A DNA stretch of 24,000 nucleotides, from NCBI GenBank assembly GCA_047610145.1, contig JBLFZF010000019.1:10025-34024 (forward strand). Direction: 5' to 3'. The notes under the pieces were generated by a model, which saw only the letters and a list, made by a program, of their open reading frames with translations, was not told the origin of the DNA and did not search any database. The translations under genes were made by a program, and so were the position numbers. Every line of letters starts with the position of its first letter. Position 1 is the first letter of the stretch. This DNA comes from Salibacteraceae bacterium (GTDB lineage: Bacteria > Bacteroidota > Bacteroidia > Flavobacteriales_G > Salibacteraceae). Positions 1,498 to 19,829 of this stretch are shown piece after piece.

Positions 1498-1519
1498 GTT
1501 GAAATATAAAAATTATAAT

Positions 1520-2169: not shown

Positions 2170-2218
2170 TTTTAGAAAAGTTTAAGGGGTAAGATAATTG
2201 GTCACAATGGATTAATCA

Positions 2219-2235: not shown

Positions 2236-2251
2236 TAAGAAGGGGGTGAAT

Positions 2252-2401: not shown

Positions 2402-2626
2402 TTATTGGAATGAAGATATTGTGAGAACTTCTGTTGCAAATCAAAAACTAAACATTCAAGGAGAACATCCCGCTCCATTTCCAAATGAAATATCACATTA
2501 CCAATTCTTCAAACTTCAAATGAGGGGGATTTAGTTCTTGATCCCTTTATGGGAAGTGGAACTGTTGGAAGGGTTTGTGATAAACTGGGAAGGGATTTTG
2601 TTGGGTATGATTTAATGTTATTTTAG
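2373..2626 (+). pseudogene. Fragment of an N4/N6 DNA methyltransferase: N-terminus missing, internal frameshift near 2486-2492, C-terminus cut short
   Basis: Frame A reads NGKNMGDYWNEDI...GEHPAPFPNEI and then hits a stop. Frame B continues ITLPILQTSNEGDLVLDPFMGSGTVGRVCDKLGRDFVGYDL. Together they rebuild the conserved HPAxFP ... GDxVLDPFxGSGTT ... LGRxFiGxE motifs. Confidence 0.7.
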
Positions 2627-3277
2627 AATCACATAAGTAGAATCTTTAAAAATTCTTTGACCAATTATATCAAAAGAATTAGACCCTTCTTCTTTTTGAG
2701 TGATTGAATGAATATATGTCATTTTAATCTTCATTGTATCTCCAATCATTTCTTGAATTGGAGCAATTACAGTATTTACTATTCCCGTTTCATTATCACT
2801 ATATGAACTTTTGTTGATAGTTGAAACAAGGACATCTCTCCAATTAACAAGTGGTGGTAGATTAACATAAACCAGTTCTCCTGTAAATAAATTGAGGTAA
2901 GTTTTAGTAATATTTGCAACAGTATCTCCCTCTAATAACCACCAATATAGATTAGATTCCCAATTTACTTCTTTAGGTTGAGATCCACTCCATAAATCCT
3001 CAATAGGATCTCCGTTTCTAAGTAATTTACCTGTAATGCGTTGAATGGTTTGATTTTCACTTCTATCTAACGTTAAGTTGTAAAACCCATTTAAATCTTT
3101 AGAAAGTTGATAGGATGGATCATCATTTAACCCATCAACAAATTCAATAGTAATTCCTTCTCCATTATCTGTTATTATATCATCTTTACTACAAGAGATA
3201 ATAAAGATTATTAATGAGAATAACAACAACAACTTCCTAACTTCAACCTTTCCAAACAACAGATTTTTTTTAATCAT
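2618..3277 (-). CDS. Lipoprotein of unknown function (219 aa)
   Basis: It has a signal peptide with a lipobox (LLLLFSLIIFIISC-SKDD). I recognise no family. Confidence 0.7.
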   Translation of the reverse strand: MIKKNLLFGKVEVRKLLLLFSLIIFIISCSKDDIITDNGEGITIEFVDGLNDDPSYQLSKDLNGFYNLTLDRSENQTIQRITGKLLRNGDPIEDLWSGSQPKEVNWESNLYWWLLEGDTVANITKTYLNLFTGELVYVNLPPLVNWRDVLVSTINKSSYSDNETGIVNTVIAPIQEMIGDTMKIKMTYIHSITQKEEGSNSFDIIGQRIFKDSTYVILK

Positions 3278-3640
3278 GAACTTACAATTTTAAATGTTTT
3301 TTATTTACGAAATATATAATAGTAAAAAAGTATTAAACATATTTTAATCAAAGAATAAATACCATCTATATAACCAAATCCTTCAACACCTTTATTAGTG
3401 CTTTTTAATTCAATTACCATTAAAAAAAGTAATATAAAAAAATAAATTTTCAAAAATCAATAAACCCTTTCTTTTAAATTTTTAGTAAATTAATTATTGA
3501 TAAAATAATAATTAAATAAACAAATCTTATTAAATCAGAACCAATAGTTTGTGATCAAAAGTAGTTTATCTTAGGATTCAAATACTCAAACATGATTGTT
3601 TTACATATTATTTAAGGACAGGTTCATTGAGTAACTAATT

Positions 3641-3883
3641 TTAGTATTTGGCACCGTTATATGATATCTGAACTCCCTCTTTATATTCAGCTTCAAAATC
3701 TAATTTACCCTCCTTATATCGAACAATTGTTCCAGTAAAAGGGGTTCCTTTATAAATTAATTCATTGTTGTTTTTAACCATATTCTTATTAAAATCAAGA
3801 GAATCAATATCAATGGTTTGTGTCCCACAACTTAGAACTAGGAACAGTAAAAGTAAAATCGAATAATTAAATAATTTTTTCAT
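3641..3883 (-). CDS. Small lipoprotein (80 aa) with a MORN-variant / YwqK-like repeat signature
   Basis: It has a lipobox (LLFLVLSC-GTQ). The C-terminal YKGTPFTGTIVRYKEGKLDFEAEYKEGVQISYNG resembles the Y-x-G-x-x-x-G repeats of YwqK-family (immunity/antitoxin-annotated) proteins. Confidence 0.65.
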   Translation of the reverse strand: MKKLFNYSILLLLFLVLSCGTQTIDIDSLDFNKNMVKNNNELIYKGTPFTGTIVRYKEGKLDFEAEYKEGVQISYNGAKY

Positions 3884-3968
3884 TGTTAGTTTTTTAAATT
3901 AATGTGATATAATTTCTGTTGGATAGTGGGATTATGTAATACAAATGGATAAAAAAGAGAAGAAAGAA

Positions 3969-4298
3969 TCAATACATCAGATGTTGTTTCGATTTATCTT
4001 TCCAGCCTGATTGATTTTTATACGTAACAAAGAATATCTTCAAATCACTTTGATTAGCGTATTCAACAAAATATATCTTTTTATCGGATTGGTTTTGATA
4101 ATCAACAAAATACCATAACCCTTTGTTTCCGTCTGCTTGGTTTTGGTAATCTACTTTGAACACCTTTAAATCACACTGATTTTCATATTCAACGACATAT
4201 ACCTTTAGATCAGATTGATTTGAATACTCAACGGAGAACACCTTTTGAGAATAGGATGTAAGTGGGATAAGGAATAGCATAATTAATAGATACTTCAT
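3969..4298 (-). CDS. Secreted repeat protein (109 aa) with six tandem ~13-aa V-x-Y-x-N-Q-x-D-x-K-[VI]-[YF] units
   Basis: The signal peptide is MKYLLIMLFLIPLTSYSQ. The repeats read VEYSNQSDLKVYV / VEYENQCDLKVFK / VDYQNQADGNKGLWYF / VDYQNQSDKKIYF / VEYANQSDLKIFF / VTYKNQSGWKDK. Confidence 0.75.
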   Translation of the reverse strand: MKYLLIMLFLIPLTSYSQKVFSVEYSNQSDLKVYVVEYENQCDLKVFKVDYQNQADGNKGLWYFVDYQNQSDKKIYFVEYANQSDLKIFFVTYKNQSGWKDKSKQHLMY

Positions 4299-4360
4299 AC
4301 GTTTTAAAATTTTGAGAGTACTAGTAAGATTATATTGATAAAAAGCAGCATTTTTTCAAA

Positions 4361-4726
4361 CTACTTACATCGAATCATTTTAGTTTCTTCTGTTGGTGCA
4401 TTGACTACAATTATGTTGCCATCATTGCCCATTTTTATATTTAATTCTGATTCATACTCTTCTCCCTCTGAAGATGATATCATTAATAGGGTGTAATATT
4501 CATCACTTTTTATTACTCTAACTTCACTAGCACTCCACTCATAACCATAGACAATCAACTGGGTATCTTCTTTAGAAATACTAAGAATCGGACTAATTTC
4601 ACATTGATTTAATGTTTCAACCCAATCTCCGATAAATTTATCAGGTAATTCATTTCCTGTTGTCTGCCCAAAAACAGAAGTTGTCAATGTAATTGTTAAT
4701 ACAATTGTAGTTAATAAAATTTTCAT
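4361..4726 (-). CDS. Secreted protein of unknown function (121 aa)
   Basis: It has an N-terminal signal peptide (MKILLTTIVLTITLTTSVFG-QTTG) and two Cys residues (in the NQCEI motif, and as the penultimate residue). A TAttTTTG -7 box lies 22 nt upstream on the minus strand. Confidence 0.7.
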   Translation of the reverse strand: MKILLTTIVLTITLTTSVFGQTTGNELPDKFIGDWVETLNQCEISPILSISKEDTQLIVYGYEWSASEVRVIKSDEYYTLLMISSSEGEEYESELNIKMGNDGNIIVVNAPTEETKMIRCK

Positions 4727-4748
4727 GGTTTAATTTTTAAGTTCAATT

Positions 4749-4756
4749 CAAAAATA
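4749..4756 (-). promoter_or_regulatory. Candidate Bacteroidetes -7 box (TAttTTTG) for the minus-strand exported-protein genes
   Basis: The plus strand reads CAAAAATA, which is the reverse complement of TATTTTTG. It lies 22 nt upstream of the start at 4726. No convincing -33 element was seen. Confidence 0.3.
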
Positions 4757-4857
4757 ATAATTAAAGATTAATGATTCGTATTATTGTAATGCGATACAAT
4801 TAACTTAATTCCGTTCGGTTATATGTTAATCATTTTAATTCGAGAATAGATTCCATT

Positions 4858-4903
4858 TGGGCGAGGGTTGTCCGCCTAGCTTAAGCTTCGGTGGATTAAT
4901 AAT
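4858..4903 (+). repeat. Possible degenerate third copy (C) of the last ~55 nt of glmS
   Basis: A gapped alignment by eye pairs GgGCGAgg-GTTGtCC-GCCTAG---CTTAaG...C-TT-CGGTGGAtTAaT with glmS 1051-1105 GaGCGAaacGTTGaCCaGCCTAGaaaCTTAGc...GCgTTaCGGTGGAgTAgT. It sits exactly where the composition returns to core-like. Confidence 0.3.
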
Positions 4904-5091
4904 CTAAGGGTTTTGACTGATATTCGGGCAGGGATTGGAGCAAGCTACCGCGTAGCGCGAAAAGCCCGGTGCACCAAAGTTTTCAAAGCGTCCGTAGCCA
5001 TTTTGGCGTAGGAGGCTAACGAAGGTGGAGCCCGCCAAAAAAATCTTGAGGTTTTCTATTAAAATTTACAAGAATTCCATTGCATAATTAA

Positions 5092-7077: not shown

Positions 7078-7483
7078 GTATCAAATTCGTTTCCTCAAGA
7101 ACCTGTGCACTAGCTTAAGGCGTCTTCTCTCTCTACAAAATTTTAAAATTTAAGGTACGTGGTCCAAATGGAAGTCGCTTTTCGGCACTTTGTTTTTTTA
7201 GCAAAGGTGTTTTTTACAGTATTTGGTTTTTTGCTTTTCGAAGTATAGGACGAGGAAACCTAGAACCCGACTGCGTTATTTGTAAGTGCAATGATTGGTA
7301 ATTGAAAAGATGTTTTTATGGCATTGAAAAGGTATCAAGAATGCCAATCGAGCTTCGGGTGTATTAAGAATAAGCTACTTAAATTAGGGGTCGTATAATA
7401 CGACGCAATCAAGTGATTCAACGTGGCTTGATATTTAACGATACTTTAAATATATTATTGACGTCATCATGTCTTCTCGGACG

Positions 7484-7491
7484 TATCTTTG
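7484..7491 (+). promoter_or_regulatory. Candidate -7 box TAtcTTTG for the TonB-dependent receptor gene
   Basis: It is an exact TAnnTTTG match 26 nt upstream of the ATG at 7518. A TTG lies at 7458-7460, giving a rather long 23-nt spacer. Confidence 0.4.
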
Positions 7492-7517
7492 TTTTTATAA
7501 AAAAACCAAATCCCACA

Positions 7518-9893
7518 ATGAAGCTTTTTCTTAGCGCTTTTCTTGCCCTAATTAGTTTACAACTCTTAGCTCAGGAAGCTTATAGTATTCGAGGTAATGT
7601 CAAAGATATTAGAAATGGCGAAGTGGTCATTGGCGCTACCGTATTTCTAGAAAACACGGCTATTGGTTCTCTGACCAATGAATACGGTTTCTTTTCAATT
7701 ACTGCGGCAGCCGGAAGTTATACTTTAAAGGTTTCGTATTTGGGTTATGAGGAGCTGAGTTCCGGAGTAGAATTAAATGTAAATCAGACGTTAAATTTCG
7801 AAATCAAAGAATCGTCCACCGCATTGGATGTGGTGGTTATTACCGCCGAAGAATCTGAACGCGTAAGCATTCGAAAACCTCAAATGGGCGTTTCTAAATT
7901 AAAGGCATCAACCATAAAACAGATGCCCGCAGTCTTGGGCGAGGTTGATATTATTAAATCCATACAGCTTCTGCCGGGCGTTACTAATAATGGAGAAGGA
8001 TCTGCTGGGTTTAATGTACGTGGTGGAGCTGCAGACCAGAACCTTGTTTTATTGGATGAGGCTATTATCTATAATACGTCTCACTTTTTTGGTTTTTTCT
8101 CAGTTTTTAACGCAGATGCCATTAAAGATATCAAACTGTACAAAGGAGACATCCCTGCGAAGTTCGGCGGAAGAGTTTCTTCAGTACTAGATGTTCGACA
8201 GAAGGACGGAAATAGCAAAAATTTTGAACTAAATGGAGGCATTGGGCTTATCTCAAGTAGACTTGCCATCGAGGGGCCGCTTTTTAAAAATAAAGGTTCT
8301 TTTCTTATGGCCGGAAGAACAACATATGCACAACTTTTTACAAAGCAAATAGAGAATCTTAAGGATGATAAAATTTCGTTTTACGATCTGAACTTAAAAA
8401 CGAATTATGAGATCAACGAGAATAACCGTGTCTATCTCTCGGGTTATTTTGGACGAGACACCTTTAATATTGGAAATTTCATAGAGAATAGTTATGGGAA
8501 TATTTCAGGAAATTTACGTTGGAATCATATTTTTAACGACCGTCTTTTCTCTAATGTATCGGTAATATATAGTAAGTACGATTATAAAATTGTACTTGAC
8601 TTTATCCAACTTGATTGGGTTGCAGATATTGAAAACTACAACCTAAAATACGATTTACGATACTATCTATCTGATAAAGTAAAAGTTGATTTTGGAGCTA
8701 GTGGGATAACCTATAATTTGAACCCAGGAGCAATTAAACCATCCACACCAGATTCCCCTATAAATCCATTGACCCTTGATCAGAAAAGAGCATTTGAAGG
8801 TGGCTTATATGTGAGTGCCGAGCATAAGTTATCGAATAAGCTAACGGCTCAATATGGCCTGAGATTTAGTGCTTTTGCGAGATTGGGAGGCCAAGATGTT
8901 GTTGACTATGCTAATGATTTACCGGTTGTATATAATGAAGAAGTTGGAATATATGAAGCAGGCGAAGCTATTGGTTCCACAGCATTTGGAAAGGGGGAAG
9001 CTATTAAAACCTTTTCAAATTTTGAGCCTAGAATCGGGATTGCTTATGAACTGAATGAATCTGCTTCAGTAAAGGCGAACTACACGCGTTCTGCACAGTA
9101 CTTGCATCTTTTGTCAAATACAGCTTCTGTGACACCTTTAGATGTCTGGACGCCAAGCGGAGAGTACATTAAACCGCAGCTATCTAATCAATATTCTGTG
9201 GGTTACTATAAAAATTTCGTGGATGATACCTACACCGTGGAGCTCGAGACCTATTATAAAACAACAGATAATAGAATTGATTATATAAACGGTTCTAACC
9301 TAATAGGAAACAATACTATTGAAACTGAGATTCTCAATGGGGAAGCAAGAGCCTACGGATTAGAAGTTTTACTTAGGAAGAACAAAGGAGATTTTACAGG
9401 ATGGTTGGCCTATACACTATCAAAATCTGAGCAACGCACCTTGGGCGGTAAGGCGGGAGGGCCTGGAATAGCAAATGGTGATTGGTACAATACCGCTTAT
9501 GATAGAACGCATGATGTGTCTTTTACGGGGAGCTATAAATTGACTGATAAATGGCGTTTTGGCACTAACCTAGTGTTTCAAACAGGAAGACCAGTTACCT
9601 ATCCAAATGGCCAATACGAATACGAAGGCTTATCAATTGCAAGCTACTCAATAAGAAACGCAGATCGCTTGGCAGCGTATCATCGTTTAGATATTTCAGC
9701 AACATACACCCCTAATAAAAAACCAAATAGACGTTGGGAGGGTGAATGGAATTTTGGAATCTATAACGTGTACAACCGTCAGAATTCTGCTGCTGTAACG
9801 TTTAATCAAAATACGGAAACAGGGTTGAATCAAGCTACAAGGTTATCGATCTTTGGAATTATACCATCGATCACCTATAATTTTAAATTTTAA
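7518..9893 (+). CDS. TonB-dependent outer-membrane receptor with an N-terminal CarboxypepD_reg-like domain (791 aa from the ATG at 7518)
   Basis: The signal peptide is MKLFLSAFLALISLQLLAQE. A carboxypeptidase-regulatory-like domain follows (YSIRGNVKD...GATVFLENT...GSYTLKVSYLGYEE), then the plug (DVVVITAE...IKQMPAVLGEVDIIKSIQLLPGV). The barrel ends ...ITYNFKF. The 35 extra codons of the track ORF (from GTG 7413) precede the signal peptide and are rejected. Confidence 0.92.
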   Translation: MKLFLSAFLALISLQLLAQEAYSIRGNVKDIRNGEVVIGATVFLENTAIGSLTNEYGFFSITAAAGSYTLKVSYLGYEELSSGVELNVNQTLNFEIKESSTALDVVVITAEESERVSIRKPQMGVSKLKASTIKQMPAVLGEVDIIKSIQLLPGVTNNGEGSAGFNVRGGAADQNLVLLDEAIIYNTSHFFGFFSVFNADAIKDIKLYKGDIPAKFGGRVSSVLDVRQKDGNSKNFELNGGIGLISSRLAIEGPLFKNKGSFLMAGRTTYAQLFTKQIENLKDDKISFYDLNLKTNYEINENNRVYLSGYFGRDTFNIGNFIENSYGNISGNLRWNHIFNDRLFSNVSVIYSKYDYKIVLDFIQLDWVADIENYNLKYDLRYYLSDKVKVDFGASGITYNLNPGAIKPSTPDSPINPLTLDQKRAFEGGLYVSAEHKLSNKLTAQYGLRFSAFARLGGQDVVDYANDLPVVYNEEVGIYEAGEAIGSTAFGKGEAIKTFSNFEPRIGIAYELNESASVKANYTRSAQYLHLLSNTASVTPLDVWTPSGEYIKPQLSNQYSVGYYKNFVDDTYTVELETYYKTTDNRIDYINGSNLIGNNTIETEILNGEARAYGLEVLLRKNKGDFTGWLAYTLSKSEQRTLGGKAGGPGIANGDWYNTAYDRTHDVSFTGSYKLTDKWRFGTNLVFQTGRPVTYPNGQYEYEGLSIASYSIRNADRLAAYHRLDISATYTPNKKPNRRWEGEWNFGIYNVYNRQNSAAVTFNQNTETGLNQATRLSIFGIIPSITYNFKF

Positions 9894-9897
9894 CATT

Positions 9898-10737
9898 ATG
9901 AAATTAGCTAATACGTTTTTGATTCTGATGCTCGTAGTACTTAGTTCATGCGAGGAAATAATTGAGGTCGATTTGCAAGATGAAGCACCTCGTTTGGTCA
10001 TTGAAGCGTCCATTAATTGGGGAAAAGGGACAACTGGAAATGACCAATTGATTAAATTGAATAGGTCTACGCCGTTCTTTGAAACAGGATCAATCACTGC
10101 AGTTGAGGGAGCGATTGTGAGCGTTACAAATGATAGTACGGATGATGTTTTTGTTTTCGCTGATACTGGAGAAGGGAATTACACCACGTCAGAATTCATA
10201 CCCATCCTTAATGACACATATACCTTGGAGGTTATACATGATGGGGAGACGTATACTGCTTCGGAGGCGCTCGTTTCTGTAGCTCCTATTAATGAAATTA
10301 GACAATCGATTGAAGGTGGTTTTAATGATGAAATTATTGATCTCAACCTCTATTTTGACGACCCAGTTAATGAGGAGAATTTTTACTTCTCAAAATTACT
10401 TCGAGATGGTGATACGTTCACAGAATTAAATACATTATCAGATCGCTTTATCGATGGGAATGAGGTGTTTATTATTTTCGAAAAAGATGGCGATAGTGAT
10501 AATGATAGCGAGTTTCTCCCAGGAGATGTTGTGAAAATTGAATTACTTGGTGTTTCGGAGCAGTTTTATGGTTTCATGGAAATATTGATAGAGCAATATT
10601 ACGGAGGTGGCGACCCATTTAGCTCTACTGCTGCTGAAATTAGGGGTAACTGCATAAATTTAACCAATGAGGCTAATTATGCTTATGGCTATTTTAGGTT
10701 GAGTGAAGCAGACATTATTACATATACGGTTGAATAG
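9898..10737 (+). CDS. DUF4249-family lipoprotein, the usual partner of this TBDR class
   Basis: It has a lipobox (LMLVVLSSC-EE) followed by EIIEVDLQDEAPRLVIEASI.... It starts 5 nt after the TBDR stop. The track ORF start at 9853 overlaps the TBDR and is rejected. Confidence 0.8.
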   Translation: MKLANTFLILMLVVLSSCEEIIEVDLQDEAPRLVIEASINWGKGTTGNDQLIKLNRSTPFFETGSITAVEGAIVSVTNDSTDDVFVFADTGEGNYTTSEFIPILNDTYTLEVIHDGETYTASEALVSVAPINEIRQSIEGGFNDEIIDLNLYFDDPVNEENFYFSKLLRDGDTFTELNTLSDRFIDGNEVFIIFEKDGDSDNDSEFLPGDVVKIELLGVSEQFYGFMEILIEQYYGGGDPFSSTAAEIRGNCINLTNEANYAYGYFRLSEADIITYTVE

Positions 10738-10757
10738 GTCATTTCTAGGAGTGTCAC

Positions 10758-10765
10758 TATCTTTG
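10758..10765 (+). promoter_or_regulatory. Candidate -7 box TAtcTTTG lying only 4 nt before the bioF GTG start
   Basis: It is an exact TAnnTTTG match in the 32-nt gap between the DUF4249 gene and bioF. No good -33 element was seen. Confidence 0.35.
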
Positions 10766-10769
10766 ATTT

Positions 10770-11912
10770 GTGCTACCTAAAAAACTGCAACTTAAAATTG
10801 ATAAGCGCATTGAAGAAAACGCGCTTCGAAGCCTAGGAAAACCTAATGATTTAATCGATTTTTCATCGAACGATTATTTAGGATTTAGCGCGTCCGAGGC
10901 CATCTATACACGCACCTTAGAAATCTTAAAAGTATCTAAGCTAGCGGTTAATGGCGCAACAGGGTCTAGGTTGTTAAGTGGGAATCATGCCCTTTATGAA
11001 ACCACCGAAGCAGCCATTGCCAAGTTTCATAATACTGAAAGTGCGCTCATTTTTAATAGCGGTTATAGCGCAAACATTGGCTTTTTTAGTTCCGTGCCAC
11101 AACGAGGAGATATTATTTTGTATGACGAACTATGCCATGCCTCTATTCGTGAAGGGATTCAATTGAGCTCCGCTAACGCGTATAAGTTTAAGCATAATGA
11201 TCTGGATGCTATTGAAAAAAAGTTGTTGGTTCGAGCCCAAGCGAACACTGAAAACGAGGAAATTTATGTAGTCACAGAAGCTGTCTTTTCTATGGACGGT
11301 GATCAACCAGACTTAGCATTAATGATAGCATTGTGTAAAAAACATGGGTGTCGTTTAATTGTTGATGAAGCTCATGCCGTCGGAGTTATTAATGCTGGTC
11401 GCGGCGCTTTATATGCCGTGGAAGCCGCAAATGAGGTGTTTGCTCGTATTGTCACCTTCGGAAAGGCCATGGGTTGTCATGGGGCCGCCATTTTAGGAAG
11501 TGCCACCTTAATCAAATATCTGGTTAATTTTACGCGAAGCTTTATTTATACTACAGGACTGCCACCCCATAACGTTGCTACAGTTCAGGCCGCTTATGAG
11601 GAACTTGAGAAAAGCAGTCATATGGTGGAATTGCTAAAGCGTAATATTGATTTATTACGATTAGTAATACAAGAACGAAGCCTAGAGGAACATTTCATAT
11701 CAAGCGGTTCTGCAATTCATTCATGTGTGATTCGTGGAAATGATCGTGTAAAAGAGGCGTCAAAATTGCTTGCAGAAAATGGGTTTGATGCAAAAGCAAT
11801 AGTATCACCCACCGTGCCTAGGGGTCAAGAGAGATTAAGACTATGTGTTCATAGCTTCAATACTGAAGAAGAAATCACAAAACTTGTAGAACTTATAGCT
11901 ACTTTTGTTTGA
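10770..11912 (+). CDS. bioF: 8-amino-7-oxononanoate synthase (GTG start)
   Basis: It is a class-II aminotransferase fold with the PLP-lysine motif VTFGKAMG, DEAHAVG, and the N-terminal motif FSSNDYLGF. An in-frame stop lies 2 codons upstream of the GTG. Confidence 0.9.
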   Translation: MLPKKLQLKIDKRIEENALRSLGKPNDLIDFSSNDYLGFSASEAIYTRTLEILKVSKLAVNGATGSRLLSGNHALYETTEAAIAKFHNTESALIFNSGYSANIGFFSSVPQRGDIILYDELCHASIREGIQLSSANAYKFKHNDLDAIEKKLLVRAQANTENEEIYVVTEAVFSMDGDQPDLALMIALCKKHGCRLIVDEAHAVGVINAGRGALYAVEAANEVFARIVTFGKAMGCHGAAILGSATLIKYLVNFTRSFIYTTGLPPHNVATVQAAYEELEKSSHMVELLKRNIDLLRLVIQERSLEEHFISSGSAIHSCVIRGNDRVKEASKLLAENGFDAKAIVSPTVPRGQERLRLCVHSFNTEEEITKLVELIATFV

Positions 11913-12319
11913 TGACGCAAGCTTTTACAACTGTCGCGGTTTTTACCTATTCATCTGAAGCGAAAATTATGCAAGGTCGCTTGGAAGCCGAAGGAATACC
12001 TACATTTTTGTTTGACGATTTAATCATCGATACGGATCCTCTTGTAAGTAATGCGATTGGTGGAGTAAAACTTCGAGTTGATTCGGTAAATGCTGAACGA
12101 GCCCAAGAAATTTTAAAATCAATAAGTGAATATTCTCTTGACAATGCTGGAAAGGCTATTGAATGCCCCAACTGTGAAGGAAATAAAATAACATACGCAA
12201 GTACTATTATGGATGTTAAATCCCTCTTTCATTTCATCTTTGGCTTCTTAATTAGTGTTTTACCTTTTTATACGAATTACGAATATACGTGTCAGGATTG
12301 CAATCATAAATTTAGCTAA
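11912..12319 (+). CDS. DUF2007-like (putative signal-transducing, PII-like fold) domain protein with a C-terminal split zinc ribbon and one hydrophobic segment
   Basis: The N-terminal part VAVFTYSSEAKIMQGRLEAEGIPTFLFDD...GGVKLRVDSVNAERAQEIL matches the DUF2007 pattern. It is followed by CPNC, a TM-like stretch LFHFIFGFLISVLPFY, and CQDC. The ATG at 11912 shares a base with the bioF stop (TGATG). Confidence 0.75.
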   Translation: MTQAFTTVAVFTYSSEAKIMQGRLEAEGIPTFLFDDLIIDTDPLVSNAIGGVKLRVDSVNAERAQEILKSISEYSLDNAGKAIECPNCEGNKITYASTIMDVKSLFHFIFGFLISVLPFYTNYEYTCQDCNHKFS

Positions 12320-12321
12320 AC

Positions 12322-12948
12322 ATGAGTCAGACATACTTCATTACTGGAATCTCTACGGAAGTTGGAAAAACGGTTGTTGCTGCTATTGTGACGGAGGCCT
12401 TAGAGGCAGATTACTGGAAACCTATTCAAGCCGGTGAGCTTGACACTAGCGATACGCACAAAGTGAAGGCTTGGATTTCCAATTCAAAAACTGTCTTTCA
12501 TCCTTCGGCATTCGAATTAAACACCCCTATGAGCCCTCATGCAGCTGCAGATATTGACGGTGTAGTTATTTCGAACAAGAAAATTAAGAGGCCTAAAACC
12601 AAAAACAATTTGGTAGTCGAGGGCGCCGGTGGTCTGCTTGTTCCTATAAATGATTCCGAAACGATAGTAGATCTCATTAAAACTACAGATTGTGTGATTG
12701 TGGTTTCAAAGCATTATTTGGGGAGCATCAATCATACACTTTTGACGATTCAGAACTTGAAATCAAAAAAACTAAAGGTCTTTGGAATTATTTTTAATGG
12801 AGCAGAAAATAAAGCCACTGAGAATATTATAGCCAAAATGAGTGGGGTTCCAATTCTAGGTAGGATTGATCAAGAGCCGTTTATTGATACAAATGTAATT
12901 AAGGAATACGCAGATATATTTACACATGAGCTTACAAGAAAGAGATAA
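12322..12948 (+). CDS. bioD: Dethiobiotin synthase
   Basis: It has the P-loop GISTEVGKT and EGAGGLLVPI motifs, and it overlaps bioA by 23 nt. Confidence 0.92.
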   Translation: MSQTYFITGISTEVGKTVVAAIVTEALEADYWKPIQAGELDTSDTHKVKAWISNSKTVFHPSAFELNTPMSPHAAADIDGVVISNKKIKRPKTKNNLVVEGAGGLLVPINDSETIVDLIKTTDCVIVVSKHYLGSINHTLLTIQNLKSKKLKVFGIIFNGAENKATENIIAKMSGVPILGRIDQEPFIDTNVIKEYADIFTHELTRKR

Positions 12949-14191
12949 AAAACATCTGTGGCATCCGCTCACGCAGCATCAAACCGCGTCTGATCCAATT
13001 GCCATAGTGAAGGCCAAAGATGCACTGCTTTGGGACGAAGATGGTAATGAGTACATAGATGGCATTGCTTCGTGGTATACCGCCATGTATGGGCATTGTA
13101 ATGACCATATTGTACTGGCAGTTTCTGAACAATTAAAGCAGCTCGACCAAATTGTTTTCGCTGGATTTACCCATGAACCAGCAATTGAACTTTCCGAAAA
13201 ATTAATGGAAATTCTTCCTGCGAATCAGCAGAAGATTTTTTTCAATGATAATGGCTCTACCGCTGTGGAGGCAGGTATTAAAATGGCACTACAGTTTCAT
13301 TACAATAAGGGACAAAAAAAAGACACTTTAATTGCCTTTGAGGATGGTTTTCATGGAGATACTTTTGGAGCAATGAGTGTTTCAAGCTTGTCTGTTTATA
13401 ATGGCCCATTCGAAGAGTTTTTCCTCAACGTGATTCGGATACCAACACCAAACGAGAACAATCTTGAAAACGTTCTTGAGTTGCTAAGACTTGCTATTGC
13501 TGAAAATAATTGTGCGGCATTTGTATATGAACCCTTAGTTCAAGGGGCAGCGGGAATGAAAATGTACAGTGCAGATGGCTTGGAGGAGATTCTGAAGATT
13601 TGTAATGCACATTCGGTGATCACAATTGCCGATGAGGTGATGACGGGTTTTGGTAAGACAGGGACTCATTTTGCGTCACTTCAGCTTGAAAACTATCCAG
13701 ATATTATGTGCTTGAGTAAGGCACTTACTGCTGGTGTAGCCGCTATGAGTATTACAACATGTACACAAGAAATTTATGATGCTTTTTTAGATGATAGCAT
13801 TGGTAAAGCCTTTTTTCATGCACATACGTATAGCGCTAATCCTTTAGCCTGTGCTGCAGCCATTGCAGGAATTAAGTTATTGACTTCCGAAGAAATCCAA
13901 AAAAACATTAAGCGTATTGAAAATCAGCATTGTGAATTTCTAAAACGAATCTCTAATCATATAAAAATTGGGAGTTCACGGCAGCATGGCGTTATTTTAG
14001 CAATCGATTTAAATATTGAAATGGAGCGTTATGGAGACTTGCGCCTCAAACTCTTCACTCATTTCATAAATGCAGGTATTTTTCTTCGTCCTTTAGGGAA
14101 TACCATCTATATCTTACCTCCCTATGTGATTACTAATAATCAATTGGAGAAAGTATACCAATCCATTGAAGAAGCTTTGGAGATAGTTTAA
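12926..14191 (+). CDS. bioA: Adenosylmethionine-8-amino-7-oxononanoate aminotransferase
   Basis: It is a class-III aminotransferase with HLWHP near the N-terminus, ADEVMTGFGKTG, and the PLP lysine in LSKALTAG. Confidence 0.93.
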   Translation: MSLQERDKKHLWHPLTQHQTASDPIAIVKAKDALLWDEDGNEYIDGIASWYTAMYGHCNDHIVLAVSEQLKQLDQIVFAGFTHEPAIELSEKLMEILPANQQKIFFNDNGSTAVEAGIKMALQFHYNKGQKKDTLIAFEDGFHGDTFGAMSVSSLSVYNGPFEEFFLNVIRIPTPNENNLENVLELLRLAIAENNCAAFVYEPLVQGAAGMKMYSADGLEEILKICNAHSVITIADEVMTGFGKTGTHFASLQLENYPDIMCLSKALTAGVAAMSITTCTQEIYDAFLDDSIGKAFFHAHTYSANPLACAAAIAGIKLLTSEEIQKNIKRIENQHCEFLKRISNHIKIGSSRQHGVILAIDLNIEMERYGDLRLKLFTHFINAGIFLRPLGNTIYILPPYVITNNQLEKVYQSIEEALEIV

Positions 14192-14212
14192 ATTTGTAAT
14201 AAAATATAGCAG

Positions 14213-15367
14213 TTGCCACTACCAATTACCATATCAAGTATTCATTCAGTTTCAGCTTTAGGGAGTTCCCCTGCGGCCATATGGCAAAGCTATCTTGCGA
14301 GGCATGCGTTATTCAATAAAGTTAAAGCCGGAAACGAGGAAGAAATTTGGTGCTCCCAACTTGCTGCCGACTTAGAGCCAGAACTAAATGCACTGCAGCA
14401 AAGAACAGCATACCGTAATTTGGATAGAACTGTTCTACTTGCGATTTTAGCTTCTAAAAAAGCCTTTAGCCAGCGTGAAGTGCAGAAAAACATGGGTGTT
14501 AATATTGGCTCTTCCCGCGGTGCCACCCAATTATTTGAAAAATATCACAAAGAGTTCTTAGCAACAAATCGGGTTTCTGCCTATTCCTCACCGACCACAA
14601 CTTTAGGAAATGTTTCTTCTTGGGTTGCCCAGGAATTAGGCGTCAATGGGGTTTCAATTGATCACTCTGTAACGTGTTCAACAGGCTTGCATGCAGTTTT
14701 AAATGCTATTGCGTGGTTGAAATCAGGCATGGCAACAAGTTTTCTTGTAGGCGGAAGTGAAGCAGCTATTACTCCCTTCACCATCGCACAGATGAAGTCG
14801 CTCAAGCTCTATAGTACTTCGGAAAATTTGTTGGCTTGTGAATCGATGCGTTTCGAAAAGAAAAAAAACACTATGGTTTTGGGTGAAGGAGCTGCCGTTG
14901 CATTATTGGAGCAAGGAATTTCGGAAAGAACACAAGCAATAATTAGTGGATATGGTTTTGCTTCGGAAGTATTGGCCCATAATAGCGCCATTTCGGAAAG
15001 TGCAGATTGCTTTCAGAAATCAATGAAAATGGCTTTACAACAGGCGAATTTGGAAACGGTTGATGCCATTGTGATGCATGCGCCGGGAACTGTGAAAGGT
15101 GACTTAGCAGAAAAGCAAGCCATTGAAATCGTTTTCGAGAAACTGCCCTTATTAACCTCCAATAAGTGGTTAGTGGGACACACCTTCGCAGCATCTGGAA
15201 TGCTCAACATGGAGATGGCCGTATTGATGTTGCAAAACAATAAGTTTATTGAAAATCCATTTTTCGCGAATGCGAGAGACCTTCCGAAGGAACTAAAAAC
15301 CATCATGGTAAACGCAGTTGGCTTTGGAGGAAATGCTGTTTCCATAATTTTGCAAAAAGCGCATTAG
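14213..15367 (+). CDS. Beta-ketoacyl synthase, KAS I/II (FabF/FabB-like) fold with a Cys-His-His triad, embedded in the biotin operon (TTG start)
   Basis: The active-site Cys155 lies in HSVTCSTGLHA (codon 14675-14677). His289 lies in MHAPGT. Lys318 and His323 lie in SNKWLVGHTFAASG (compare FabF STKSMTGHLLGAAG). The C-terminus has NAVGFGGNAVSIIL. At 384 aa it is somewhat shorter than housekeeping FabF. Confidence 0.85.
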   Translation: MPLPITISSIHSVSALGSSPAAIWQSYLARHALFNKVKAGNEEEIWCSQLAADLEPELNALQQRTAYRNLDRTVLLAILASKKAFSQREVQKNMGVNIGSSRGATQLFEKYHKEFLATNRVSAYSSPTTTLGNVSSWVAQELGVNGVSIDHSVTCSTGLHAVLNAIAWLKSGMATSFLVGGSEAAITPFTIAQMKSLKLYSTSENLLACESMRFEKKKNTMVLGEGAAVALLEQGISERTQAIISGYGFASEVLAHNSAISESADCFQKSMKMALQQANLETVDAIVMHAPGTVKGDLAEKQAIEIVFEKLPLLTSNKWLVGHTFAASGMLNMEMAVLMLQNNKFIENPFFANARDLPKELKTIMVNAVGFGGNAVSIILQKAH

Positions 15368-15457
15368 ACAACCTTGCTGGATTTCACTATTAAGACTTCC
15401 TTGATAAATCGTTGATTATTTTTTTCATTTCTATAAAAACCTCGTCATCCTTTTTAT

Positions 15458-15465
15458 TATTTTTG
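15458..15465 (+). promoter_or_regulatory. Candidate -7 box TAttTTTG lying 5 nt before the bioB ATG
   Basis: It is an exact TAnnTTTG match in the 103-nt KAS-bioB gap. No -33 element was seen. Confidence 0.35.
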
Positions 15466-15470
15466 ACACT

Positions 15471-16562
15471 ATGAGCGAGATTAACCACAACTGGACAAAA
15501 GAAGAAATTTTAGCCATTTATAATAAGCCTATGATGGAATTGCTTTACGAAGCAGCAACCATACATAGAGCGGGTCACAACCCGAATCAGGTGCAGGTTT
15601 CTACCTTGCTTTCTATAAAAACAGGAGGCTGTCCTGAAGATTGTGGCTACTGTCCGCAAGCCGCTCGTTACCATACTGACATCGAAGGAAACGACCTTAT
15701 GACGGTCTCTCACGTAAAAGCACAAGCACTCCGCGCTAAGGCATCTGGTAGCTCCCGTGTATGCATGGGAGCCGCATGGAGAAATGTAAAAGACGGCCAG
15801 GAGTTTGATCAAGTTTTAGAAATGGTTCGTACCATTAACAAACTAGAGATGGAGGTTTGTTGTACCCTTGGAATGATTACTGAAAATCAAGCACATCGCT
15901 TAGCGGAAGCTGGATTATACGCCTACAATCATAATTTAGATACTTCAGAAGATTACTATAAAGACGTTATTTCTACGCGTGCCTATCAGGATAGATTGGA
16001 CACGATTGGGAATGTTCGTAAAACAAATGTCACGGTTTGTAGTGGCGGGATTATTGGCATGGGTGAGAAGATTGAAGATAGAGCTGGCATGTTGGTTGCG
16101 CTGGCATCCTTGAGCCCGCAACCAGAATCTGTCCCTATTAACGCTTTAGTTGCTGTTGAAGGCACTCCCATGGAAGATGTGGAGCCAATTTCGATTTGGG
16201 AAATGATCCGAATGGTTGCCACCACACGTATTGTTATGCCTAATACGCAGGTTCGTCTTTCTGCGGGACGTACGGAAATGAGCAGAGAAGGACAAGCTAT
16301 GTGTTTCTTTGCGGGTGCAAACTCTATTTTTGCTGGAGATAAACTGCTCACAACACCAAACCCAGATGTAAATGAAGACATGAAAATGTTTGAGCTATTA
16401 GGTTTGGAGCCTATGAAACCCTTTGTTAAAAAAGCGCAGCCTGAAACAGTTGAAGCAACAGAGTCAAAATTGCAACCCTTAGGTGAAAAACCAAAATGGA
16501 CGCGTCCAGGGCATAGTATTGAGCGCAACGAAGAAGCTAAAGCAAAGGCCAAAGTAAAATAG
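15471..16562 (+). CDS. bioB: Biotin synthase (radical SAM)
   Basis: It has the CPEDCGYCPQ radical-SAM cluster motif, full-length BioB similarity, and a lysine/alanine-rich C-terminal tail (EEAKAKAKVK). Confidence 0.96.
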   Translation: MSEINHNWTKEEILAIYNKPMMELLYEAATIHRAGHNPNQVQVSTLLSIKTGGCPEDCGYCPQAARYHTDIEGNDLMTVSHVKAQALRAKASGSSRVCMGAAWRNVKDGQEFDQVLEMVRTINKLEMEVCCTLGMITENQAHRLAEAGLYAYNHNLDTSEDYYKDVISTRAYQDRLDTIGNVRKTNVTVCSGGIIGMGEKIEDRAGMLVALASLSPQPESVPINALVAVEGTPMEDVEPISIWEMIRMVATTRIVMPNTQVRLSAGRTEMSREGQAMCFFAGANSIFAGDKLLTTPNPDVNEDMKMFELLGLEPMKPFVKKAQPETVEATESKLQPLGEKPKWTRPGHSIERNEEAKAKAKVK

Positions 16563-16582
16563 CGTTTTAAGGGCTAAGTTTC

Positions 16583-16602
16583 TTCCGAAATTTCTTTCGG
16601 AA
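16583..16602 (+). terminator. Hairpin downstream of bioB (TTCCGAAA tttc TTTCGGAA); weak terminator candidate
   Basis: It is an 8-bp perfect stem 21 nt after the bioB stop. An A-run rather than a T-run follows, so function is uncertain. Confidence 0.35.
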
Positions 16603-16682
16603 AAAATTACTACACAATTTATAACATGATATTGCCGTTCTAAGGGCCTGTCAAGATCTACCTAATTCTTAAATTTTATTAT

Positions 16683-17318
16683 ATGAAAAGAATGCTTTTT
16701 TTAGCAGCGGCCTGTGCCGTGATGCTAGGTTGTTCAAAAAATGATGATGACACTAACAGAAACTGTTCAAAGCCACAAAACCTGTCCATCGATCAAGTTA
16801 ATAGTACCTCCGCTTTTTTCAGTTGGGATACGGGAGGGGAATCTGCCTTTGAAATTGAATACGGAGTACGCGGTTTTAGATTAGGGGAAGGAACTATCAG
16901 ACAAACCTCACAAACCGAATATTTAATTGACGGATTAACGCCAGTGACAGAATATAAAGTGTATCTCCGCTCCAACTGCGGAAGCGATGGATACAGTAGT
17001 TACATTTCGGCTGTTTTACTGACACTTGAGAATACTGACGCCTGTCATACACCAACTAATCTGGAGTTAGTAGCAGTAGATTCTAATAGTATTGAACTCA
17101 CTTGGGACGAAAATAATGAGGCTGCTTGGGAAGTGGAATATGGCACTAATGGATTCCCTTTGGGCGCAGGTATCATCATTCAAACCACACAAAGTAATGT
17201 TGAAATCATGGACTTGTTGCCTGCCACAACCTATGAAATTTATACGCGAGCCAATTGCGGTGATGATGGATACAGTGGTTATTCTGAACAGTTAGTTGTC
17301 ACAACGGATGGAATTTAA
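16683..17318 (+). CDS. Lipoprotein with two tandem fibronectin type III-like domains
   Basis: It has a lipobox (VMLGC-SKN). Two ~88-aa repeats each start C-x-x-P-x-N-L, contain W-[ED]-x-x...[FW]E[IV]EYG..GF.LG.G, and end R-[SA]-N-C-G-[SD]-D-G-Y-S. Confidence 0.85.
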   Translation: MKRMLFLAAACAVMLGCSKNDDDTNRNCSKPQNLSIDQVNSTSAFFSWDTGGESAFEIEYGVRGFRLGEGTIRQTSQTEYLIDGLTPVTEYKVYLRSNCGSDGYSSYISAVLLTLENTDACHTPTNLELVAVDSNSIELTWDENNEAAWEVEYGTNGFPLGAGIIIQTTQSNVEIMDLLPATTYEIYTRANCGDDGYSGYSEQLVVTTDGI

Positions 17319-17330
17319 TAGCTTTTTAAT

Positions 17331-17360
17331 GAAGAGCGCGGTTTAACTGCGCTCTTTTTA
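17331..17360 (+). terminator. Rho-independent terminator after the Fn3 lipoprotein gene
   Basis: The stem AAGAGCGC / GCGCTCTT (8 bp, 9-nt loop) is followed by TTTTTA. Confidence 0.75.
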
Positions 17361-17385
17361 TACGGTACGTTTATCTAAAGTTTTG

Positions 17386-17393
17386 TAATTTTG
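17386..17393 (+). promoter_or_regulatory. Candidate -7 box TAatTTTG for the cupin/OMP gene pair
   Basis: It is an exact TAnnTTTG match 16 nt upstream of the ATG at 17410. Confidence 0.35.
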
Positions 17394-17409
17394 TTCGAAG
17401 GAATATTCC

Positions 17410-18276
17410 ATGCAATTACAAGAAATAGATAGAGTCAAGACGATCACAAAGGAAGATTTCCTAAGGCTTTACTTTAGGCCTCAAAGACCTGTTGTTATTG
17501 AACAATTTGTGGATGATTGGCCCGCTATTGAAAAATGGGATTTAGATTATATGGCGGAAGTAGCCGGAGACAAGGAAGTGCCGTTGTATGATAATAGACC
17601 TGTGGACTATAAGGATGGCTTTAATGAGCCCCACGCCACCATGAAAATGCGAGAATACGTGGACTTGCTGAAGAAGGAACCCACGAAGTTTCGAATTTTT
17701 CTTTGGAACATTCTTAAGGAAGTGCCAGAACTCCAAAAAGACTTTACATTTCCAGACTTTGGTCTAAAGCTTATGAAGGGCCTGCCAATGTTGTTTTTTG
17801 GTGGAAGAGATTCCTATACTTTCATGCATTACGATATTGATTTGGCGAATATTTTTCACTTTCATTTTCAAGGCGAAAAAGAAGCCATTCTTTTTAATCA
17901 AAAACAGAATAAGTACCTTTATAAGGTTCCTCATTCTTTGATTGCAAGAGAAGATATAGATTTTGCCAATCCAGATTATGAGAAATGGCCGGCATTGAAA
18001 AATGCGAAAGGATTTAAAGCCAAACTGGAGCATGGCAATGTTTTGTATATGCCTGAAGGATATTGGCATTATATGCGTTATATAACCCCTGGTTTTTCCA
18101 TGAGTTTACGAGCTATCGCTCGGAATCCTAAAAATTTAGGTAAAGCGGTTTATAATATTTTTGTGATGAGGCATTATGATAATCTTATGCGTAGAATAAA
18201 AGGACAAGCATGGATTGATTGGAAAAATAAAGAGGCAATTAAGAAAACTAATAAGAATGTAGCTAACACACAATAA
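17410..18276 (+). CDS. Cupin-like / JmjC-domain protein (probable Fe(II)/2-oxoglutarate-dependent hydroxylase)
   Basis: FMHYDID supplies the His-x-Asp, and EGYWHYMRY supplies the distal His of a JmjC/cupin facial triad. The N-terminal part shows the typical cupin_8 pattern (FLRLYFRPQRPVVIEQFVDDWPAIEKW). Confidence 0.8.
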   Translation: MQLQEIDRVKTITKEDFLRLYFRPQRPVVIEQFVDDWPAIEKWDLDYMAEVAGDKEVPLYDNRPVDYKDGFNEPHATMKMREYVDLLKKEPTKFRIFLWNILKEVPELQKDFTFPDFGLKLMKGLPMLFFGGRDSYTFMHYDIDLANIFHFHFQGEKEAILFNQKQNKYLYKVPHSLIAREDIDFANPDYEKWPALKNAKGFKAKLEHGNVLYMPEGYWHYMRYITPGFSMSLRAIARNPKNLGKAVYNIFVMRHYDNLMRRIKGQAWIDWKNKEAIKKTNKNVANTQ

Positions 18277-18278
18277 TC

Positions 18279-18770
18279 ATGAAAAATCTATTTATCATTG
18301 TTGCGATTTTAAGCATGAATTTTGCGTTTTCACAAGCATACACTGGCGCCGGGGATGTGAAATTTCAATTAGGAGCTAATATCCAAAGCGGTGGAAATGG
18401 TATTGCAGGTTCGTTGGGTTTTGGACTGGGAGAAAACATTTCTATTGGCGTATATTCTGCTTATTTATTAGGTATTCAGGATTCTTTGGAGCCAGAATTT
18501 AAAGATCGGTTTGATATTCAAGGAAGGTTTAATGCCAATTTGGGAAGCGTTCTTGGAGCAAGCCCAAACCTAGATGTCTATCCTGGTTTACATCTAGGTA
18601 CTCGAAATTTTGGAGGACATATTGGCTTACGTTATTTCTTTTCGCCTAGCTTTGGTTTATATTCTGAAGTACATGTTCCGTTTGCTTTTTATAATCCCAA
18701 TACGTTGAAAGCTGAAGAGGAGCTCAACAATCAGTTCGTTTTTACGATTGGGGCTTCTTTTAATATCTAG
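18279..18770 (+). CDS. Small outer-membrane beta-barrel protein (163 aa)
   Basis: The signal peptide is MKNLFIIVAILSMNFAFSQ. It has alternating Gly/aromatic beta-strand patterns and the C-terminal motif FTIGASFNI. It starts 2 nt after the cupin stop. Confidence 0.75.
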   Translation: MKNLFIIVAILSMNFAFSQAYTGAGDVKFQLGANIQSGGNGIAGSLGFGLGENISIGVYSAYLLGIQDSLEPEFKDRFDIQGRFNANLGSVLGASPNLDVYPGLHLGTRNFGGHIGLRYFFSPSFGLYSEVHVPFAFYNPNTLKAEEELNNQFVFTIGASFNI

Positions 18771-19270
18771 CGTATTTCTCGAATATAATCATACACCATA
18801 CTACTTTCCCAACCGCGGTATAGTAGATAATCTGCTGTCTTTTTTCTTTTTTTCTGAAGGTCTTTCTCTGAAATTAATTGAGCGAGTCGTTTTTCGGCAA
18901 GTGCATCAAAGGTTTGGTAATACTCAGAATCGGGAATTTCTTTAAGTGCTAGCTTGATATTATAGGCTGAGATGGCACGTTGCTTTAGTTCCCGAATAAT
19001 TCTAACTTTCCCCCACTTTTTCATTCTGAATTTCCCTCTCGCGAATGCCTGTGAGAATCGGGATTCGTTTAAGAAATTATGCTGCAGCAAGTGATGAATT
19101 ATTTGTGCCTTGGCCTCAGGAATCATCCGCATTTCATATAGTTTCTGCTCTACTTCTTTATGACAGCGTTCTTGGTATGCGCAGTATTTTTCGAGACGCC
19201 TTTTGGCTTCTTCTACGGTGTATGTTTTTGTTGGTTTCACTACGTGAAAATAGTTTTTTTTTCTGTTCAT
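18767..19270 (-). CDS. recX: Recombination regulator RecX
   Basis: It is 167 aa with the RecX three-repeat helical pattern (EEAKRRLEKYCAYQERCHKEVEQKL..., FLNESRFSQAFARGKFRMKKWGKVRIIRELKQRAIS..., KKTADYLLYRGWESSMV). Confidence 0.85.
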   Translation of the reverse strand: MNRKKNYFHVVKPTKTYTVEEAKRRLEKYCAYQERCHKEVEQKLYEMRMIPEAKAQIIHHLLQHNFLNESRFSQAFARGKFRMKKWGKVRIIRELKQRAISAYNIKLALKEIPDSEYYQTFDALAEKRLAQLISEKDLQKKRKKTADYLLYRGWESSMVYDYIREIR

Positions 19271-19829
19271 TTCTTTTGCTTGTCCAAAAGAAACGAACCA
19301 AAGAAAAAGACCCTTTTACTAAGGTATTTTTGATTCACTTTTAGTTCATAAAAACCGTTCGCATGTTTCTAAATTCACTACAAGGCTTCGCGAATTTTTA
19401 ACGAAACATGCTCACATATACTCAAGTAAAAGATTTTAATATTGGAATGAGCCAAAACTAAAAATTGCCCTCGCATTCGACACTTCAACTTCGTTCAGTA
19501 CGGCTTCAGGTTTGGACCCCTTCCGTCAATGCTTAGCTTTGACATCTTTCCCTAACTAGGGAAGGATCTTTCTAATCTCTTACATTAGGATCAAACGCTC
19601 CCCTCCTTTTTAAGGGAGGGGTGGCCGCGATAGCGGACGGGGTGGGTGCGTTAGCGATAGCAGTGTAAATCCTTTTTTATTGTCAATGACCTTTCGACTC
19701 GCTTCACGAGCTACCTTCGTTACAGAATATATTCTGTTTCTCGATAATGCTCAAGGTGACAATAAAAAAGATTGAAACGAATAGCGCGACCGTACCGAAG
19801 GTAGGGAAACGCCCTTAAAAATAGCGCAT

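Follow-up and report, generated by a model that had tools for sequence, protein, structure and literature searches.

We examined a 24,000-nucleotide (nt) stretch of DNA from a Salibacteraceae bacterium of the Bacteroidota (GenBank assembly GCA_047610145.1, contig JBLFZF010000019.1, positions 10,025 to 34,024 of the forward strand), hereafter referred to as the window, which encodes a cluster of biotin (bio) genes with an embedded beta-ketoacyl synthase (KAS). The open reading frames (ORFs) of at least 80 amino acids (aa) were scanned with Pfam and NCBIfam profiles, and the ORF list and these scans place bioF, a small DUF2007-like ORF, bioD, bioA, the KAS gene and bioB on a single strand (Table 1). 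An earlier, sequence-only reading of the window had suggested that the KAS carries out a glutaryl- or malonyl-primed condensation towards the pimelate arm of biotin, and the gene content, coordinates and spacings that it gave for the cluster are confirmed here. With a start at TTG 11909 the small ORF overlaps bioF by 4 nt, and with a start at ATG 11912 the overlap is the 1 nt described earlier. A gap of 2 nt precedes bioD, which overlaps bioA by 23 nt, and there are gaps of 21 nt between bioA and the KAS gene and 103 nt between the KAS gene and bioB. The last of these gaps possibly holds a separate promoter for bioB. A scan of positions 9800–19400 for sigma-70 promoters and terminators returned sites no more common than in shuffled sequence, Bacteroidota promoters being outside the models of the scan.

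A genome scan using one genome per GTDB species revealed at least 573 stretches that encode a relative of the KAS. The best 80 loci, which we analysed, are all from Flavobacteriaceae, including Flavobacterium (with F. psychrophilum), Zobellia, Tenacibaculum, Polaribacter, Psychroflexus, Tamlana and Ulvibacter. The order bioF-(small ORF)-bioD-bioA-KAS is found in approximately 75 of the 80, with bioB directly downstream or elsewhere. Specifically, bioA lies immediately upstream of the KAS gene in 75 loci (median gap 100 nt), bioF lies upstream in 69, and bioB is downstream on the same strand in 28 and elsewhere in the others. Genes for an NfeD-like protein and a flotillin are inserted between the KAS gene and bioB in 10 loci of the Zobellia type (L014, L019, L027, L065 and others), indicating that bioB readily becomes detached from bioFDA-KAS. 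A comparison of KAS identity with that of BioA, BioF, BioD and BioB across loci was uninformative, because the 80 loci are all about equally distant from the window.

The linkage extends to much more divergent relatives. HMMER was run exhaustively against 1.84 billion cluster representatives and recovered 368 clusters (50% identity) at E≤1e-30, with identities as low as 36%, and genomic context was looked up for 12 distant members with 36–45% identity. The KAS gene is linked to bio genes in nine of them. Two (L084 and L090) have an overlapping bioF-bioD-bioA-KAS-bioB operon, L092 has bioF-bioD-bioA-KAS, and L091 and L095 have bioB-bioF-bioD-bioA-KAS, as does L094 with inserted ORFs; the order is KAS-bioB-bioF-bioD in L087 and KAS-bioB in L089, and in L086 the end of bioF is followed by a 32-aa ORF and the KAS gene. 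At least three gene orders are thus represented, and the flanks of the distant operons, including those on Kryptoniota-type contigs, bear no relation to those of the window. The named members include Pontibacter (Cytophagales), Schleiferiaceae and Candidatus Kryptoniota; the placement of the proposed route in Flavobacteriia by the sequence-only reading was therefore too narrow. The tie to biotin synthesis that it suggested has gained from the wider sample, as a linkage that outlives at least three gene orders, unrelated flanks and a large evolutionary distance, and is kept in about 75 of the 80 close and nine of the 12 distant loci, argues from comparative genomics for a functional connection between the KAS and this pathway.

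We also searched for other genes of the pimelate arm. None of the window ORFs scanned resembles BioC, BioH/G/K/J, BioW, BioI, BioZ or the ferritin-like BioE. The window and the related loci (93 sources, 1.67 Mb in all) were searched by phmmer with E. coli BioC, BioH, FabH, AcpP and FabG, and BioC, BioH and FabH had no match at E≤0.01. The earlier statement that the window contains no known pimelate-arm gene is upheld by both searches, and its wording that a recognisable pimelate-arm pathway is lacking applies to the window and some 1.67 Mb of related loci, the extent of the search. AcpP had one match, adjoining a housekeeping fabF in L068, and FabG had two, to unrelated short-chain dehydrogenase/reductase (SDR) genes in the isolated loci L013 and L075, so neither is a recurrent partner of the cluster. 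The Pfam lists of the 12 distant loci contain no acyl carrier protein (ACP), FabG-like or FabZ-like genes. ORF clustering across the 80 loci yielded as recurrent neighbours the ordinary syntenic genes atpD, atpC, recX, rng, mutY and ssb; no ferritin-like, P450 or BioW-like gene recurs, and there is no recurrent ferritin-like or MocR ORF upstream of bioF in this clustering, in which no search with a BioE sequence or model was made. Sporadic inserts (NfeD, flotillin, GNAT, GIY-YIG, SET-like, PD-(D/E)xK-like and permease genes) were judged from their sequences to be unrelated cargo. The KAS gene is the sole recurrent extra gene of the bio loci.

Active site and acyl pocket

Alignment of the KAS to solved FabF structures equates Cys155, His289, Lys318 and His323 with FabF Cys163, His303, Lys335 and His340. 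The catalytic Cys, His, Lys and His are invariant in 150 family representatives, in agreement with the complete decarboxylating and condensing active site recognised earlier. The AlphaFold model of the protein has a predicted local distance difference test (pLDDT) score of 95 and template modelling (TM) scores of 0.88–0.90 to FabF structures. The FabH-type model PRK09352 gives a negligible score of 22 bits.

Despite this fold, the possibility that the enzyme is the housekeeping FabF is effectively refuted. The KAS shares 23% identity with E. coli FabF and scores 146.6 bits against the fabF model TIGR03150, for which the cut-off is 493.75; no NCBIfam KAS model reaches its cut-off, and in NCBI the family proteins carry only the name 'beta-ketoacyl synthase N-terminal-like domain-containing protein'. 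In the Flavobacterium dankookense locus L068, a canonical acpP-fabF pair lies 2 kb from the bio-type KAS gene, and the FabF encoded there scores 596 bits on the fabF model and has 49% identity to E. coli FabF. Because this genome has a separate canonical FabF, the bio-type KAS is not its only FabF; the contrary case, a sole FabF, is the one that the sequence-only reading had named as fatal to its proposal. Its view of the enzyme as something more than a misplaced housekeeping gene is borne out by the low identity, the score below the cut-off and the separate acpP-fabF pair.

The acyl pocket differs from that of FabF at several positions, as determined from alignments of 81 close sequences, of the 150 representatives and of 42 diverse sequences (alignment A1). 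The position of FabF Ile108 is occupied by Arg102, in a GSSRGAT motif, in 149 of the 150 representatives (the remaining one has a gap) and in 42 of 42 sequences in A1. Gln193 replaces FabF Gly201 (149/150), Met194 replaces Phe202 (124/150), Ser126 replaces Val134 (147/150) and Thr130 replaces Ile138 (144/150). Gly370-Phe371-Gly372, corresponding to the GFGG gate loop of FabF (Phe400), is invariant. A candidate substitution of the gate residue Phe400 by Val was rejected, since Phe400 is kept as Phe371 and the varying residue is Phe398. Both E. coli and F. dankookense FabF have Ile at the Ile108 position, and the Flavobacterium housekeeping FabF retains Ile, Gly-Phe and Ile where the KAS has Arg102, Gln193-Met194 and Thr130.

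The I108F substitution in FabF limits elongation to short chains, and the top structural match of the KAS model is the B. subtilis FabF I108F mutant. Ile108 and Phe202 of FabF form a back gate at approximately C7–C8 of the bound chain (PMC9006962). An Arg at this gate with a lining of Ser, Thr and Gln is, we infer, the design expected to close the pocket and to pair with the carboxylate of a C5 acyl-enzyme. The alterations are those that a short primer with a free omega-carboxylate would call for, and in this respect the residues favour the glutaryl- or malonyl-primed condensation suggested earlier.

Small ORF, neighbouring genes and coordinates

The small ORF (11909–12319) has a weak N-terminal DUF2007 similarity followed by CPNC, a hydrophobic segment and CQDC, which together form a split zinc ribbon, and its predicted product is possibly membrane-anchored. 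It is translationally coupled between bioF and bioD. The earlier label 'DUF2007 protein' can be kept only as 'DUF2007-like', as the Pfam match is present but falls below the cut-off. Of the 80 related loci, 25 contain the ORF; it is missing from all the distant-clade operons inspected, and no relative of its product was found in the PDB.

Outside the bio cluster, the window has genes for a TonB-dependent receptor, the beta and epsilon subunits of ATP synthase, RecX, RNase G, HU, MutY and SSB, for single proteins with SIS, fn3, JmjC/Cupin_8, DUF4249 and DUF6646 domains, and for a few orphan products. The TonB-dependent receptor (CarboxypepD_reg, Plug and barrel domains) and DUF4249 genes (7413–10737, + strand) end 32 nt upstream of bioF on the same strand, and a TonB receptor gene also adjoins the KAS gene in relatives L085 and L061. 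Directly after bioB is a gene for a JMJD5-like JmjC/Cupin_8 oxygenase (17410–18276, +) with an intact HxD...H motif. This gene is found directly 3' of bioB in 24 related loci (L015, L024, L031, L038 and 20 more), and since the pairing is kept where bioB is on the opposite strand and far from bioFDA-KAS, bioB and the cupin gene form a conserved pair of their own. It is absent from the distant-clade bio operons. Next after the cupin gene is the DUF6646 gene (18279–18770, +), an arrangement shared by 10 related loci. Further downstream, a tRNA-Lys(CTT) gene (19548–19618, +) has immediately behind it a Flavo-1 small RNA (19646–19795, +; Rfam RF01705, 50 bits, gathering score 42), in keeping with a flavobacterial origin of the window. 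The region from approximately 1000 to 5000 is AT-rich, with a GC content of 0.24–0.32 compared with about 0.39 elsewhere, and contains orphan ORFs. It has sub-threshold matches to a recombinase and to a phage-tail C-terminal domain, as well as a DUF6150 match above the cut-off (81.7 bits), and could be what is left of a mobile element.

Table 1. Genes of the bio cluster and selected codons of the KAS gene in the window
Feature	Position	Strand	Evidence
bioF, 8-amino-7-oxononanoate synthase, consumer of the pimeloyl thioester	10770..11912	+	Pfam Aminotran_1_2; best NCBIfam model TIGR00858, 336 bits, under the cut-off of 426
DUF2007-like ORF, 136 aa	11909..12319	+	Pfam DUF2007, 22 bits, under the cut-off of 25.7
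bioD, dethiobiotin synthase	12322..12948	+	TIGR00347, 118 bits, above the cut-off of 83
bioA, S-adenosylmethionine:7-keto-8-aminopelargonate (SAM:KAPA) aminotransferase	12926..14191	+	TIGR00508, 533 bits, above the cut-off of 405
KAS I/II-type condensing enzyme, 384 aa	14213..15367	+	Pfam ketoacyl-synt N and C domains
KAS Arg102 codon	14516..14518	+	GSSRGAT motif aligned to FabF GSGIGGL (Ile108)
KAS Cys155 codon, active-site nucleophile	14675..14677	+	Aligned to FabF Cys163; family-invariant
KAS Gln193-Met194 codons	14789..14794	+	Positions of FabF Gly201 and back-gate Phe202
KAS His289, Lys318 and His323 (decarboxylation/condensation)	15077..15181	+	Aligned to FabF His303, Lys335 and His340; family-invariant
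bioB, biotin synthase	15471..16562	+	TIGR00433, 402 bits, above the cut-off of 225

Proposed role of the ketosynthase

The KAS genes are linked to bio operons, encode intact catalytic residues, are distinct from fabF and have a remodelled pocket. On balance we lean, if only slightly, towards the view that the KAS is a dedicated condensing enzyme of the biotin pathway, descended from FabF-type KAS enzymes, that makes the pimelate arm without BioC and BioH. Which substrate is used, the chemistry with a free carboxylate, the reliance on housekeeping reductases and how many rounds are run are proposed by analogy with known systems. Cys155 would be acylated by a short primer with a free omega-carboxylate, for which glutaryl (C5) is the best fit, with malonyl perhaps used in a first round. 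The carboxylate would be held by Arg102, with Gln193 and the Ser/Thr lining, at the site of the Ile108/Phe202 back gate of FabF. The His-His-Lys site would decarboxylate malonyl-ACP, and condensation would yield 3-oxopimeloyl-ACP, which the housekeeping FabG, FabZ and FabI could reduce to pimeloyl-ACP. The co-transcribed BioF, BioA, BioD and BioB would then convert pimeloyl-ACP to biotin. In such a scheme the KAS would make methylation by BioC and demethylation by a BioH-type esterase unnecessary.

In the Lynen scheme, three malonyl units are joined by two decarboxylative condensations with a free omega-carboxylate. We consider two Lynen-type rounds from malonyl-ACP and one BioZ-like round from a glutaryl thioester to be about equally likely. 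Hu and Cronan found that E. coli FabG, FabA and FabI turn the BioZ product with a free omega-carboxylate (3-keto-pimeloyl-ACP) into pimeloyl-ACP. We tentatively suggest, as a possibility somewhat short of probable, that the KAS alone provides a further methyl-ester-free route to pimeloyl-ACP, by the Lynen scheme or by elongation of glutaryl-ACP/CoA with only the housekeeping FabG, FabZ and FabI, and that this is the main pimelate pathway of Flavobacteriaceae, extending to Cytophagales and Kryptoniota.

Extra neighbours of the KAS gene, each seen once, could bear on the supply of the primer. Genes for a rhodanese and an acetyl-CoA-synthetase-like AMP-binding enzyme are directly 3' of the KAS gene in L092 (4409–6746), two family-less ORFs lie between bioA and the KAS gene in L094 (8729–9940), and a gene for a generic acyl-CoA dehydrogenase (ACAD) is divergently transcribed near the KAS gene in L087 (273–1460). 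The last was considered as a link to glutaryl-CoA and rejected, as it is a generic ACAD that scores under all cut-offs.

Several points weigh against a dedicated role of the KAS in the pimelate arm. KAS I/II enzymes normally use acyl-ACP primers, and a gene for making glutaryl-ACP is absent from the bio cluster. No bio gene is nearby in three of the 12 distant loci (L085, L088 and L093) and in a small number of the close loci, L063 and L068 among them. The placement of Arg102 relative to Cys155 is deduced from the FabF alignment. The biotin pathway of Desulfovibrio also requires a dedicated ACP, reductase and dehydratase (PMC10102598), and for this reason the housekeeping enzymes may not manage the round from C3 to C5. 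BioE has been reported in some Flavobacteriaceae (PMC12915131), and bioE, or a pair of bioC and an esterase gene, may be encoded outside the window and the approximately 1.67 Mb of loci searched.

Three other explanations were weighed. The KAS may be specialised for the malonyl- and glutaryl-ACP methyl esters of a BioC/BioH-type pathway, on which the housekeeping FabF would be poor, with the methyltransferase and the esterase encoded elsewhere. We regard this as unlikely. A short closed pocket would also fit C3 and C5 methyl esters, esterases of the BioH type are often unlinked to bio operons, and bioC and esterase genes are possible elsewhere, as the searches covered the window and the related loci; however, bioC usually lies within bio operons, and the 93 sources contain no BioC-like methyltransferase. 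The invariant Arg and the Ser/Thr/Gln lining would also be a better match for the charge of a free carboxylate than for an uncharged methyl ester. Furthermore, fatty acid synthesis (FAS), and hence the ketosynthase (KS) pocket, accommodates the pimeloyl methyl ester (Chem Sci review, PMC9006962), so that a special KAS for methyl esters would be unneeded.

Alternatively, the pimeloyl group may be released from fatty acyl chains by oxidative cleavage, BioE-like or other, or may derive from uptake of pimelate, in which case the KAS could be an accessory that makes or trims the cleaved acyl-ACP, or a non-biotin enzyme kept in place by synteny. The occurrence of BioE in some Flavobacteriaceae (PMC12915131), the JmjC-type oxygenase gene that neighbours bioB in 24 loci and the family members without bio linkage are consistent with such a source. 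We give it a similarly low probability, since the loci share no recurrent ferritin-like, P450 or BioW-like gene, the JmjC gene is missing from the distant operons, and a pocket that appears to be closed at about C7 would be ill-suited to long chains. Synteny alone is insufficient to explain a linkage that persists through at least three gene orders, unrelated flanks and phylum-level distance. That a housekeeping FabF or FabB sits by chance at the bio genes is scarcely credible; it would account for the FabF fold and the complete Cys-His-His-Lys active site, but not for an identity of 23% to FabF, a score far under the fabF cut-off, the replaced hydrophobic residues of the acyl pocket or the canonical acpP-fabF pair within the F. 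dankookense locus.

The pimelate arm is where the biotin pathway varies among bacteria and where knowledge of it is still incomplete. BioZ (2020) and BioE (2025) were each reportedly presented as a new pimelate route, and we know of no description of the pimelate source of Flavobacteria. The KAS family offers a concrete candidate gene in at least 573 species-level genomes, and the GSSRGAT motif with Arg102 is a simple signature for annotating biotin prototrophy. Its pocket would be a natural example of a fatty-acid ketosynthase rebuilt for a charged dicarboxylate, of use in dicarboxylic-acid engineering, and the enzyme might be targeted selectively by drugs in fish pathogens, Flavobacterium psychrophilum and Tenacibaculum being examples. 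Many genomes encode bioFADB but no known pimeloyl source (PMC6593275), and Flavobacteria are among the main marine producers of biotin (PMC9561691).

Comparison with known systems

The literature searched recognises four pimelate routes, BioC-BioH, BioI-BioW, BioZ and BioE (PMC12704756). The last, a ferritin-like oxygenase of Weeksellaceae that is also reported in some Flavobacteriaceae (PMC12704756, PMC12915131), was omitted from the list of routes in the sequence-only reading, which was thus incomplete. No account of a FabF-type KAS within the bio operons of Bacteroidota was found in the full-text literature, the coverage of which excludes subscription journals. A comparable stand-alone KAS locus in Leeuwenhoekiella, which may or may not be the bio locus, was apparently mislabelled as an aryl-polyene cluster in antiSMASH-based work (PMC9859067).

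BioC-BioH and BioE-BioL fill the same slot in the pathway, the supply of pimeloyl-ACP or pimeloyl-CoA to BioF, with proteins that are unrelated to the KAS. The former are a SAM-dependent methyltransferase and an esterase, which were not found in the window or the related loci, and the latter are a ferritin-like diiron oxygenase and a MocR regulator. The KAS shares with FabF/KAS II (TIGR03150) the fold, the Cys-His-His-Lys active site and the GFGG gate loop with its Phe. It differs in the back gate (Arg/Met for Ile108/Phe202), in Gln for Gly201 and Ser/Thr for Val134/Ile138, and in its location within a bio operon, whereas fabF adjoins acpP.

A system with the same proposed logic is BioZ (PMC7645780, PMC8024396, PMC12625853), in which a single condensing enzyme is likewise embedded in a bio operon without bioC and bioH. 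In both, an omega-carboxy primer and malonyl-ACP would give 3-oxopimeloyl-ACP, with housekeeping reductases completing the arm. However, BioZ is a FabH homologue (KAS III) with a Cys-His-Asn triad that uses glutaryl-CoA and is encoded in alpha-proteobacterial bioBFDAZ operons, whereas the KAS of the window is FabF-like with Cys-His-His-Lys. The carboxylate anchor also differs, being two serines in BioZ and, as a candidate, the invariant Arg in the KAS. As KAS class and triad both differ, the KAS stands outside the BioZ family despite its proposed BioZ-like working, and its recruitment is independent of BioZ.

The closest precedent is the extended Desulfovibrio bio cluster DVU2558-2565. Desulfovibrio has neither bioC nor bioH, and random barcode transposon-site sequencing (RB-TnSeq) by Trotter et al. 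showed that it depends on the FabF-like DVU2563 and the neighbouring genes to make biotin; the authors suggested less hydrophobic active sites (PMC10102598). That paper cites Rodionov 2004 and Lin & Cronan 2011 for earlier proposals of the scheme. Here too a KAS I/II-type gene lies inside a bio cluster, and an elongation free of bioC, bioH and methyl esters is proposed. Desulfovibrio has in addition a dedicated ACP, a FabG-like reductase, FabZ-like dehydratases and a required nitroreductase-like gene, whereas such accessory genes are cluster partners in none of the 92 loci; the likeness of the KAS to DVU2563 is by description only. This precedent was omitted from the sequence-only reading (PMC10102598), and the route is consequently less distinct than the 'distinct, apparently uncharacterised route' claimed there, while its second attribute stands, as no description of the family was found in the literature. 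We rate the KAS as an uncharacterised, widespread enzyme that represents a variant on the BioZ-type and Desulfovibrio-type solutions.

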